In this document: positions 42,922 through 47,221 of the stretch, one piece after another
Position numbering within the stretch: the first letter of the stretch is position 1
How the letters are laid out: each line of letters opens with the position of its first letter
Virus record (IMG/VR): IMGVR_UViG_3300044695_006401
DNA length: 64,000 bases
Strand: one strand, 5' to 3'
From: a virus
Taxonomy: Duplodnaviria; Caudoviricetes
The notes under the pieces: generated by a model
Databases searched by the model: none
Seen by the model: only the letters and a program-made list of their open reading frames with translations
Told to the model about the DNA's origin: nothing
Position numbers and translations under genes: made by a program

Positions 42922-42952
42922 TTTGCAAATGTTAAAAACTTTTGTACATTTG
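42922..42952 (+). promoter_or_regulatory. Bacteroidota primary-sigma promoter
   Basis: TTTG(42922-42925)-N19-TACATTTG(42945-42952). Confidence 0.75.
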
Positions 42953-42965
42953 TAAAAAAACAGCA

Positions 42966-44018
42966 ATGAACATAGAAAAATTTAAAGAGCTCCTTTCAGT
43001 CCCAAGCAAGACATATCAAGAAGAAGATATGGTAGAGTTTATTTGTGACGAGTTGGGGGATATGGAAGGGGTTACTTTCTATCGTGATGTAATGATGAAC
43101 ATCTACGCGACAAAAGGTGTGTTAGAGGAAGGTGAATTTTACCCTATGTTTATTGCTCACACAGATACAGTACACAGTAAGATTGAAAAAATAGTAGTTA
43201 AAGAAGAAAAACTTGCTCGACCTTACACTTTTGGTAAATCCTTTGACAACACACCAGTTGATGTATTAAAGGCTTATGACACTAACGGTAACCCAACAGG
43301 TATTGGTGGTGATGACAAGTGTGGTATTTTTATTTGTTTAGAGTTACTAAAACAATTAGACAAAGTAAAAATTGGTTTTTTTGTTTCAGAAGAAACAGGA
43401 TGTCACGGTTCATCAAAATGTGATGAAAACTTTTTACAGAATGTTGGTTATATCACTCAATATGACGCACCTGGTAATCACTTAATTACCGAGATTTGCT
43501 CGGGAGTTCGTTTGTTTGAAAGGGAGAGTGAGTTCTTTGAAAAAACATTAGAAGTTATTACGGAATCTTTTGGTAATGAAATGTTAGTTCAATCTCACCC
43601 TTACACCGACATTTCACAACTAAAAAAGAAAATCAATGTTTCTTGCATTAACATGTCTTGTGGTTATTACAATATGCACTCAGTTCAAGAGTTTGTATCC
43701 TTAGACGATGTAAAAAATGCGATTGAAGCAGGAAAGAAGATGGTTGCAGTATTGGGACTTAAAAAATACACATACGAATATGCTCCTATCAAATATACTC
43801 CTCAATTAATAATGAATTCACTTGTGGAAGATTTAGATGAAGAAGTTTTTGATTACCCTGAAGAAACTTTTCATCGTTTAGGGAGTATAGACGCATATGA
43901 AGAAAAAGATGGTATCACATTAAGTGACGCTTATGACGATGGATTTTTATTTATCCCCGATGAGGATTTAGTAAGTCTTTATGAAATTATTAAAGAAAGA
44001 TTGATTAAAAAGTATTAA
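42966..44018 (+). CDS. M28/M20-like zinc metallopeptidase
   Basis: AHTDTVH, GGDDKCG, SEETG, QYD, GYYNMH. The track start at 42942 lies in the promoter; ATG 42966 preferred. Confidence 0.82.
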   Translation: MNIEKFKELLSVPSKTYQEEDMVEFICDELGDMEGVTFYRDVMMNIYATKGVLEEGEFYPMFIAHTDTVHSKIEKIVVKEEKLARPYTFGKSFDNTPVDVLKAYDTNGNPTGIGGDDKCGIFICLELLKQLDKVKIGFFVSEETGCHGSSKCDENFLQNVGYITQYDAPGNHLITEICSGVRLFERESEFFEKTLEVITESFGNEMLVQSHPYTDISQLKKKINVSCINMSCGYYNMHSVQEFVSLDDVKNAIEAGKKMVAVLGLKKYTYEYAPIKYTPQLIMNSLVEDLDEEVFDYPEETFHRLGSIDAYEEKDGITLSDAYDDGFLFIPDEDLVSLYEIIKERLIKKY

Positions 44019-45252: not shown

Positions 45253-45693
45253 ATGCAAAAATTTTCTATAACTCTATTAATTTTTTTATCATCTTTTTTT
45301 TCAATTTCACAAGTTATTACGGTTGAATTTGAAAAAACTAAATTTTTTATTTCTGAAGGTAGAATATCACCAAAGGATTTATTACTCGATACCTCCTCGA
45401 TGTATGCAAGTGAGCCAAGTAAGTATAAAAAAGTTTTTGATTTAGATAGTAATATTTGTAAATTTTATATTAATGATTCTCTTCAGAGTTCTTTAAGTAT
45501 AACCAAAGTCGAAAAGATTGAAGGAAGTTTAATTAAATTAACCTTTATTGAAAAAGATTTAAGAGACGGATTCCCTCTAGTTACCCATCAATTTGTAAGT
45601 GATACAATATGTTATTATTATTGGTATTGGGGAGGTCAGGATAACTTATCTAATTTAATTTTAGAAGAGGTAAGTAGTATATCTATAAAATAA
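45253..45693 (+). CDS. predicted exported protein (SPI signal peptide)
   Basis: MQKFSITLLIFLSSFFSIS|Q; upstream TATATTTG (45209-45216). Confidence 0.7.
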   Translation: MQKFSITLLIFLSSFFSISQVITVEFEKTKFFISEGRISPKDLLLDTSSMYASEPSKYKKVFDLDSNICKFYINDSLQSSLSITKVEKIEGSLIKLTFIEKDLRDGFPLVTHQFVSDTICYYYWYWGGQDNLSNLILEEVSSISIK

Positions 45694-46166: not shown

Positions 46167-46198
46167 TTTGATTTTTTAGGATATAATATTTATATTTG
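46167..46198 (+). promoter_or_regulatory. Bacteroidota primary-sigma promoter for the tmRNA
   Basis: TTTG(46167-46170)-N20-TATATTTG(46191-46198). Confidence 0.75.
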
Positions 46199-46234: not shown

Positions 46235-46652
46235 GGGCCTATATTGGATTTGACGGGCGTTGGTTGAATAAAAGAAGCATGTCGGGACTGAATTAATCTC
46301 GTTAAAAACTGATTCGAACAACAACTGGCAATGTGCTAAACAACCTTGAGACTTTGGGACTTATCTCAACTCAAGAAGTTACTGTAGCTTAATTTAAGTA
46401 CGGAAACGGGGGGTCGGTGGATACATAACCTAGCAACAGAAATCCTTAAGGTGTGGTTTCTACCCAAAAAGAAACAAACGGTCTCGTTCAGAGGTCTACC
46501 GTAACAAAAGTGAACTCGACACAGTTTTTGGTAACGATGTTAAAATAGGAACCAAATATTTTGGAAGGTATGAAAAACCTTATCCTAAACATGTAGTTGT
46601 CTCTTAGACAAGACGAGCCGGACGAGGGAGTCGGAGCCCTCTAGGTCCACCA
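46235..46652 (+). ncRNA. ssrA: tmRNA (SsrA), 418 nt
   Basis: 5' GGGCCTATATTGGATTTGAC; acceptor stem GGGCCTA/TAGGTCC with a G3.U wobble, discriminator A and encoded CCA; helix-2 GCATGT/ACATGT; T-stem GAGGG/CCCTC after GGAC; tag ORF at 46327-46392 after ACAACT. Confidence 0.92.
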
Positions 46653-46656
46653 ATTA

Positions 46657-46691
46657 ATCCCATCATTTAATTATGGTGGGATATTTTTTTT
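46657..46691 (+). terminator. Rho-independent terminator after the tmRNA
   Basis: ATCCCATCAT/ATGGTGGGAT stem followed by ATTTTTTTT. Confidence 0.8.
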
Positions 46692-46710
46692 AAAATATTT
46701 TTAAAAGTGT

Positions 46711-46740
46711 TTTGCAAATCAAAAAAAGGTCTTATCTTTG
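46711..46740 (+). promoter_or_regulatory. Bacteroidota primary-sigma promoter
   Basis: TTTG(46711-46714)-N18-TATCTTTG(46733-46740). Confidence 0.65.
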
Positions 46741-46777
46741 TAGTGTAATCATTCATAAACCCTTTAAACCAAATAAC

Positions 46778-47221
46778 ATGAAAAATTTATTGACCTTAGT
46801 TTTCGCATTATTCTCAACAATTACTGTTTTCTCTCAAGCAAATTTGAACTTCCATACTTTGGGTGGTTTTGATTATTTTGACATTACAAATAAAAATATC
46901 AATCCTGAGGATCTTTTAAAGGGTAAGACTGTGGGTCAAGTTCTACAATCAGATGGATTTAATCTTTACGAGATCAACTTAGATAAAAAAACATTGACCC
47001 ACAATTATATTACTTTGGAATCGGGATCAAAAGACCGTAAAGAAGTGGTATACAAGATTACAAATTTGGAAGATGAGACATACTTTACAAAATTTGATGT
47101 TGTGACTGAAGATTTTGGTACGATGACTTTTGTAATTAATAAAATGAAATCAACAAACAAAGATTTGATTGTAGTCTTCAAAGATAATAACCGTACTTAC
47201 GCGGCAGTAGTAAATATGTAA
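46778..47221 (+). CDS. predicted exported protein (SPI signal peptide)
   Basis: MKNLLTLVFALFSTITVFS|Q; the track start at 46712 lies in the promoter. Confidence 0.72.
   Translation: MKNLLTLVFALFSTITVFSQANLNFHTLGGFDYFDITNKNINPEDLLKGKTVGQVLQSDGFNLYEINLDKKTLTHNYITLESGSKDRKEVVYKITNLEDETYFTKFDVVTEDFGTMTFVINKMKSTNKDLIVVFKDNNRTYAAVVNM

Follow-up and report, generated by a model that had tools for sequence, protein, structure and literature searches.

The window, that is, the whole stretch of 64,000 nucleotides of DNA analysed here, belongs to a T4-like phage with a Gp23-type capsid protein, a Gp20-type portal and a T4-type terminase, and its DNA occurs in 18 lake-water metagenome runs. It carries a full-length tmRNA gene (Table 1) that scores 71.5 bits against the Rfam covariance model RF00023, with a gathering score of 47 and an E value of 7.6e-26. 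The alignment covers model positions 1-374, so that the window tmRNA spans the whole model. Upstream on the same strand lie genes for a ClpC-like unfoldase and for a peptidase, and small genes flank the tmRNA on either side. The flanking small proteins, which carry signal peptides or form a shared-leader pair, had no match in Pfam or PHROGs, and no adaptor or SmpB-like gene was found beside the tmRNA.

Table 1. Features of the tmRNA locus and its surroundings in the window
Feature	Position	Strand	Basis or detail
ClpC-like double AAA+ unfoldase without N domain, with VGF loop	40884..42920	+	S. aureus ClpC residues 149-806, E 1.6e-199
M20/M42-like peptidase	42942..44018	+	phrog_4191, 1.9e-37
Small genes flanking the tmRNA	45253-45693, 46712-47221	+	signal-peptide-like hydrophobic leaders
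Promoter-like motif, Bacteroidota type (TTTG, 20 bases, TATATTTG)	46167..46198	+	about 37 bases 5' of the mature 5' end
tmRNA gene, one-piece type	46235..46652	+	RF00023 match, 18/46 pairs compensatory, metatranscriptome contigs
Acceptor stem, 5' strand GGGCCTA, paired with 46642-46648 (TAGGTCC)	46235..46241	+	7 pairs
Pseudoknot PK1	46283..46315	+	stem 1, 46283-46287/46297-46301; stem 2, 46290-46295/46310-46315
Invariant A, 4 bases 5' of the resume codon, counterpart of E. coli A86	46323	+	61/61 phage tmRNAs
Tag reading frame, 21 codons GNVLNNLETLGLISTQEVTVA + TAA	46327..46392	+	conserved length, coding-type change
Helix 5, 46378-46385 (codons 18-20) with 46400-46407	46378..46407	+	last codon and stop in the loop
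T arm, stem GAGGG/CCCTC, 8-base loop AGTCGGAG instead of the usual 7-base TTCGANT	46624..46641	+	Rfam alignment, relatives
Discriminator A and encoded CCA end	46649..46652	+	sequence, Rfam alignment
Terminator-like hairpin, T run directly after CCA	46657..46692	+	10-pair stem, then ATTTTTTTT

Relatives of this locus were gathered by two routes, one starting from the neighbouring peptidase and the other from the odd T arm of the tmRNA, which together gave 115 loci. A tmRNA homologue was present in 104 of them, and these provided 61 distinct full-length sequences. A pattern anchored in the PK1 core and at the close of the tag frame matched at least 118 viral contigs but not a single one of 185,579 species genomes of bacteria and archaea, indicating a tmRNA lineage that is restricted to phages. 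The window tmRNA had no blastn match among 50,697 phage records.

The tmRNA is transcribed as a unit of its own. Part of the gene was contained in 14 metatranscriptome runs, where the evidence consists of assembled contigs and hence speaks for the presence of the gene in RNA rather than for RNA ends or levels. In four of these runs, which come from four studies, contigs fell only within positions 46251-46621, and the adjoining coding sequence, about 1 kb on each side, had none. Since carried-over DNA would ignore gene borders, this confinement of the contigs to the gene indicates that the RNA is made. One metatranscriptome contig (46286-46519) covers the entire tag frame, and another matches 118 bases with zero mismatches. 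As for signals around the gene, Bacteroidota-type promoter motifs were not enriched in the whole window (5 against 4.5 expected), and with the count at chance level it is the position of the site upstream of the tmRNA that supports it as promoter-like. Terminator-like sites numbered 2 in the region against 0.3 expected.

The structure of the RNA is well conserved among the relatives. In 41 of 41 tmRNA sequences, acceptor pairs 1-3 were GC, GC and GU, so that G3:U, which corresponds to the alanine identity pair G3:U70, is invariant, and the fourth pair covaries (CG in 23, GC in 16, UA in 1). Both stems of PK1 are paired in 38-41 of the 41 sequences and display compensatory changes: pair 51-69 of stem 1 is CG in 22, AU in 13 and GC in 6, and stem 2 (paired in 38-41 of 41) shows GC/AU, AU/GC and UA/CG switches. 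In helix 5, which joins 147-154 with 170-179, pair 149-177 changes from UA to AU in five sequences while the Val codon is kept. Altogether, compensatory changes were found at 18 of 46 predicted pairs, distributed over the acceptor stem, helix 2, both PK1 stems, helix 5 and the T stem. The terminal CCA is not encoded in several of the relatives (L009, L019, L027, L029, L033 and L071), which end in CCACC, CCACT or CCACA, for example; a CCA-adding enzyme would thus be needed there.

Downstream of PK1, at a spacing of 11 bases, the tag frame resumes at GGC (46327-46329) after ACAACT, with sense codons extending to 46389 and a TAA stop at 46390-46392. The encoded peptide, GNVLNNLETLGLISTQEVTVA, ends in VTVA. 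A sequence-only reading of the window had proposed a tmRNA at this place, with a 21-codon frame from GGC after ACAACT to VTVA-stop, and its coordinates proved exact. It had named RF00023 and ARAGORN as checks of the resume codon. The covariance model places its consensus resume codon on GGC 46327, in agreement with the proposal; meanwhile, ARAGORN made no tmRNA call in the window itself but called a homologous tag of 21 residues with the same start in the relative L076. The same reading had considered that a different frame might give a canonical tag. The other two frames turned out to be unconserved stubs (such as AMC-stop and QCAKQP-stop), with no canonical tag among them.

An open frame of 21 codons is expected in AT-rich DNA with a chance of roughly 0.2, so that the open frame alone lies within chance, and it is the conservation across relatives that makes it significant. 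Comparison of tags across related phage tmRNAs, as had been suggested, gave exactly 21 codons and the same stop position in 60 of 61 distinct homologous tmRNAs (22 codons in the remaining one), represented by 26 nucleotide versions of the frame, and a 21-residue tag in 94 of 94 further viral loci. The family consensus is G-[ND]-V-L-x-[NK]-[LM]-[ES]-x-[LVI]-G-L-[ILV]-x-x-x-[EQ]-V-T-V-A, with conserved N- and C-terminal blocks and a middle part that occurs in three main variants. The T-V-A end was present in 60 of the 61 tags and in all 94 further ones (one tag has A-V-A and one an extra Y), and none ends in A-[LM]-A-A or L-A-A. With 21 residues, the encoded tag lies outside the canonical ssrA range of about 8-14. 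No reading frame of the window ends like the tag or contains its N-terminal motif, which argues that the tag is not a copy of the terminus of a phage protein.

The mode of change within the frame is that of a coding sequence. Among the 26 distinct nucleotide versions, variation was seen at 15 of 21 first, 7 of 21 second and 19 of 21 third codon positions, and several synonymous codons each are used for Val3, Leu4, Leu10, Gly11 and Leu12. For codons 1-13, pN/pS is 0.39 in the tag frame as compared with 0.66 and 2.6 in the other frames. These patterns strongly support the view that the 21-codon template evolves as a translated sequence. Position, length, mode of change and the ARAGORN call in L076 all agree, which firmly supports GGC as the start of the frame that would be used. 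Meanwhile, codons 17-21 hardly vary even in their nucleotides, and codons 18-20 lie within helix 5, suggesting that the invariance of EVTVA is in part a constraint on the RNA, with RNA and peptide constrained together. The first half of the tag is indeed rich in Leu, as the sequence-only reading held, but its supposed amphipathic character found no support: residues 2-14 have a helical hydrophobic moment of 0.26, while shuffled versions average 0.22 and attain 0.26 in 34% of cases.

The T arm of the window tmRNA is unusual in its loop. The 8-base loop, AGUCGGAG (once AGUCAGAG), defines a sub-lineage, and the sister tmRNAs have a 7-base UUCGA loop. In the set of loci collected without reference to the T arm, 7-base loops of the UUCGA type occurred in 74 loci and 8-base loops in 6. 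The stem around the 8-base loop exists in the versions GAGGG/CCCUC, GUGGG/CCCAC, GUGAG/CUCAC, GAGGA/UCCUC and CGGGG/CCCCG, and these five compensated versions suggest that the odd loop is maintained under selection. Such a loop could impair the binding of SmpB or EF-Tu.

The tmRNA is also mosaic. The stretch from helix 5 to the last pseudoknot (alignment columns of about 205-345) exists in several versions that cannot be aligned with each other, and each of the three tag variants occurs together with both T-loop types. The relative with the closest tmRNA (L062) has a peptidase of only 63% identity, and L001, with a peptidase 91% identical to that of the window, has a distant tmRNA. The mosaic structure, and a tmRNA similarity that does not go along with that of the peptidase next to it, suggest that phages frequently exchange tmRNA modules.

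The host of the phage probably belongs to the class Bacteroidia of the phylum Bacteroidota; the best cellular match of the ClpC-like gene is a contig in a Flavobacteriales genome bin. We thus compared the phage tmRNA with those of Bacteroidia. A tmRNA above the Rfam cut-off was present in 56 of the 61 Bacteroidia genomes sampled, and the scores were mostly 108-168 bits, as opposed to 71.5 bits for the phage gene. The two share the one-piece layout with the G3:U70 acceptor stem, T arm, helix 2, PK1, the A at position -4, GGC and CCA, as well as a stop codon that falls within the helix 5 loop. ARAGORN called 29 of 30 Bacteroidia tmRNAs. The tags that it predicted have 8-10 residues and follow the pattern G[END]xx[YF]A[LM]AA, with one obvious miscall. 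In 28 of these 29, the resume codon directly follows [T/C]A-N3 behind PK1, a layout identical to that of the phage. The -4 A was likewise present in 28 of 28 Bacteroidia tmRNAs whose upstream sequences were read by eye; in E. coli, A86 fixes the reading frame 4 bases downstream (PMC2481249).

What sets the phage gene apart from its Bacteroidia counterparts is the tag, along with the 8-base T loop of its sub-lineage and its location on a genome without smpB. An A[LM]AA end was found in 28 of the 29 Bacteroidia tags, so that the earlier claim of a phage tag about twice the host length and devoid of LAA stands (21 residues and VTVA against 8-10 residues and A[LM]AA). ClpX was detected in 36 of 41 Bacteroidia genomes and ClpP in all 41. 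The usual reader of LAA is therefore available in the host class, and yet the phage tag lacks LAA. None of 29 Bacteroidia tmRNAs was matched by the phage tmRNA in an nhmmer search, so that a donor lineage cannot be named.

Long tags without LAA are known from other bacteria. To our knowledge, mycoplasmas lack ClpXP. The Mycoplasma ssrA tag has 27 residues and is thought to be read by Lon, providing an accepted case of a tag paired with a protease that is not ClpXP (PMC8403727). Like the phage tag, the tags of Mycoplasma and Mesoplasma are long, rich in hydrophobic residues and without LAA. Unlike the mycoplasmas, the probable phage hosts do possess ClpX and ClpP, and the two kinds of tag are not homologous. 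Since the probable hosts keep ClpX and ClpP, loss of the usual reader is not the cause of the long phage tag.

The genes upstream of the tmRNA are retained among the relatives. Among loci found independently of these genes, all 68 that extend far enough have the peptidase upstream of the tmRNA, and all 41 with sufficient flank for the ClpC-like gene carry it there. All of these loci belong to one phage group, so the linkage of ClpC-like gene, peptidase and tmRNA may reflect shared ancestry and not shared function. In a distant branch (L176, L180, L191, L196 and L236), whose peptidases are 43-49% identical, the peptidase lies on the strand opposite to the tmRNA, and tag length (21) and tag ends are unchanged. 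The ClpC-like protein can be aligned over its full length with S. aureus ClpC, but the alignment begins at residue 149 of the latter, which means that the N domain is absent; the VGF loop of the phage protein sits where ClpC has the loop that docks on ClpP. The missing N domain is the one that binds adaptors. Among deposited phage records, the nearest relatives of the ClpC-like protein, at 55% identity, come from uncultured phages of 634-642 kb. The sequence-only reading had invoked a phage ClpC together with a phage ClpP. The ClpC-like ATPase is real, but a search of four large relatives, 219-281 kb in size and in two cases at least 93% complete, turned up neither ClpP nor SmpB.

Collectively, these observations suggest that the locus encodes a working phage tmRNA that would make use of the SmpB of its host, and whose tag would act as a sequence-specific signal, probably a degron that is read otherwise than LAA is read by ClpX. 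This is the reading towards which we lean. Given that the phage family encodes no SmpB, the RNA would have to employ host SmpB, host alanyl-tRNA synthetase and EF-Tu. The phage tmRNA would enter ribosomes that stall during infection and free them, and Ala plus the 21 residues of the tag would be added to the unfinished protein. In E. coli, the tag sequence is dispensable for ribosome release alone. The phage peptide is nevertheless under purifying selection with a fixed length, which argues that the peptide is read by something. The likeliest reader would be an energy-dependent protease that recognizes EVTVA-COOH together with the conserved V3, L4, L/M7, G11 and L12, in a mode distinct from the reading of LAA by ClpX on host tags.

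A reading in two parts is conceivable by analogy. The ssrA tag of E. coli is recognized by the SspB adaptor on its N-terminal part and by ClpX on LAA, and the phage tag resembles it in having conserved ends, a variable middle and a fixed length. It differs in that it has no LAA, and no adaptor candidate was found.

It is possible, though we would not expect it, that the tag is an ordinary degradation tag for host ClpXP, a ClpAP-like protease, FtsH or a tail-specific protease that reads a small non-polar C-terminus, in which case the extra length would be historical baggage or would help a host adaptor. The non-polar V-A end, with Val also at position -3, is consistent with such a reading, as is the fact that the probable host class has ClpX and ClpP and the phage brings no ClpP of its own. 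Engineered ssrA variants ending in LVA or AAV serve as degradation tags in E. coli (PMC9382460), so that a -VA end would be compatible with ClpXP. On the other hand, all 29 Bacteroidia tags are short and 28 have the A[LM]AA end, suggesting that the host system selects that end, whereas the phage lineage has held 21 residues and VTVA in more than 150 viral contigs with no drift towards LAA. In addition, a purely C-terminal signal would not account for the protein-level selection on codons 1-13.

We consider it improbable that the tag is not a degron, with release alone being needed and the tagged products being stable or harmless, or with the tag serving a different purpose that depends on its sequence, for example solubility or sequestration. 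The growth of E. coli phages requires ribosome release from tmRNA rather than proteolysis, which speaks for this view, and so does the lack of LAA; the breakdown of host mRNA by a T4-like phage would also raise the demand for rescue. Nevertheless, a fixed length and purifying selection are unexpected in a peptide without a reader, and no phage protein of the window has a similar end that would hint at another role.

We give very little credit to the idea that the RNA is a decoy which titrates the SmpB of the host or competes with the host's tmRNA, its template being rarely translated. There is a precedent in a mycobacteriophage that encodes little beyond a tRNA-like domain, molecules of this kind being inhibitors of tmRNA (PMC4131195), and the non-standard T loop of the window tmRNA and the failure to find a phage SmpB would fit. 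A decoy would need none of the coding-type conservation of the template, the -4 A or PK1, all of which are kept, and most family members have a standard T loop. Scarcely credible at all is a resumption elsewhere, either further downstream in frame, as in the 8-residue in-frame tag ATEQVTVA that ARAGORN called in L033, or in another frame, with a real tag as short as is usual in the host class: the Ala codon of that call is Ser or Arg in other tag variants, the base 4 before the internal codon is T and not A in the window sequence as read by eye, codons 1-13 display third-position-biased change and conservative replacements, and the covariance model, the PK1 spacing and the homology to host tmRNAs favour GGC, the other frames being unconserved.

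Phage tmRNAs as such have been recorded before, in mycobacteriophages and Bacillus phage G (PMC4131195) and in huge phages (PMC7162821). Those of Bxz1 and phage G have similarly low Rfam scores, of 73.9 and 67.6 bits, and ARAGORN predicts for them tags of 25 residues ending in AAALV and of 13 residues ending in ELQVA, respectively. In LR756508.1, a 484-kb uncultured phage, positions 92434-92880 hold a candidate frame of 36 codons with a PAAV end and a model-aligned resume codon, in this case from a single sequence. What these have in common with the window phage is a complete tmRNA on a large lytic phage genome and a tag unlike the usual ...ALAA. Bxz1 and phage G belong to another phage lineage and infect another host phylum, with no sequence relation to the window tmRNA, and the tag frame described here is, in comparison, supported by RNA data as well as by over 150 homologues. 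The window family fits the pattern of a phage tmRNA without smpB whose tag is unlike that of the host class, the kind for which Bxz1 and phage G serve as comparators. The family is thus an addition to the known phage tmRNAs with private tags, and long tags without LAA are not unique to it. Odd tags seem to be the rule among phage tmRNAs, and this is possibly a general pattern.

Within the degron reading that we favour, the leading candidate for the reader would be the phage ClpC-like unfoldase, which lacks the N domain, working on host ClpP. We regard as tentative, and on balance doubtful, the full scheme of a private degron in which the tag would deliver proteins to this unfoldase, docked on host ClpP via the VGF loop, and the M20/M42-like peptidase would finish the peptides. 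The ClpC-like gene adjoins the tmRNA in the window family, whereas Bxz1 has no ClpC-like gene and phage G only a weak AAA+ match. Moreover, the tag variant is independent of the neighbouring peptidase, since the window and L001 have peptidases that are 91% identical and differ in tag variant. A tmRNA without a ClpC-like gene in Bxz1, and a tag variant that does not track the peptidase, weaken the case for a specific match between the tag and its neighbours. If the private degron were true, the phage would run a rescue-and-recycle line independent of host ClpX, and the divergent tags of Bxz1, phage G and the huge phages might reflect a general re-routing of the products of trans-translation.

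Phage tmRNAs are listed in genome surveys, and the literature that we searched says nothing on the purpose of their tags; in a search with limited coverage of subscription journals, no article dealing with what these tags contain came up. The family described here provides a clean case, with a conserved 21-residue tag unlike that of the host, abundant and expressed freshwater phages, and an adjoining unfoldase. It makes approachable the question of whether phages re-route the products of ribosome rescue.

The behaviour of ARAGORN on this family bears on how many such genes are known. Among 14 relatives it made a call in 3, of which one (L049) was spurious, and missed 11, including L001, L003, L018, L014 and L028, with members that carry the standard T loop among those missed. 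ARAGORN was also the tool of the huge-phage survey (PMC7162821). Surveys based on it miss most members of this family, and phage tmRNAs are thus probably under-counted. In the 484-kb phage LR756508.1, a second match to the tmRNA model lies at positions 414804-414915, with 112 bases and 58 bits, above the gathering score, and it possibly encodes just the tRNA-like domain, as reported for mycobacteriophage DS6A.
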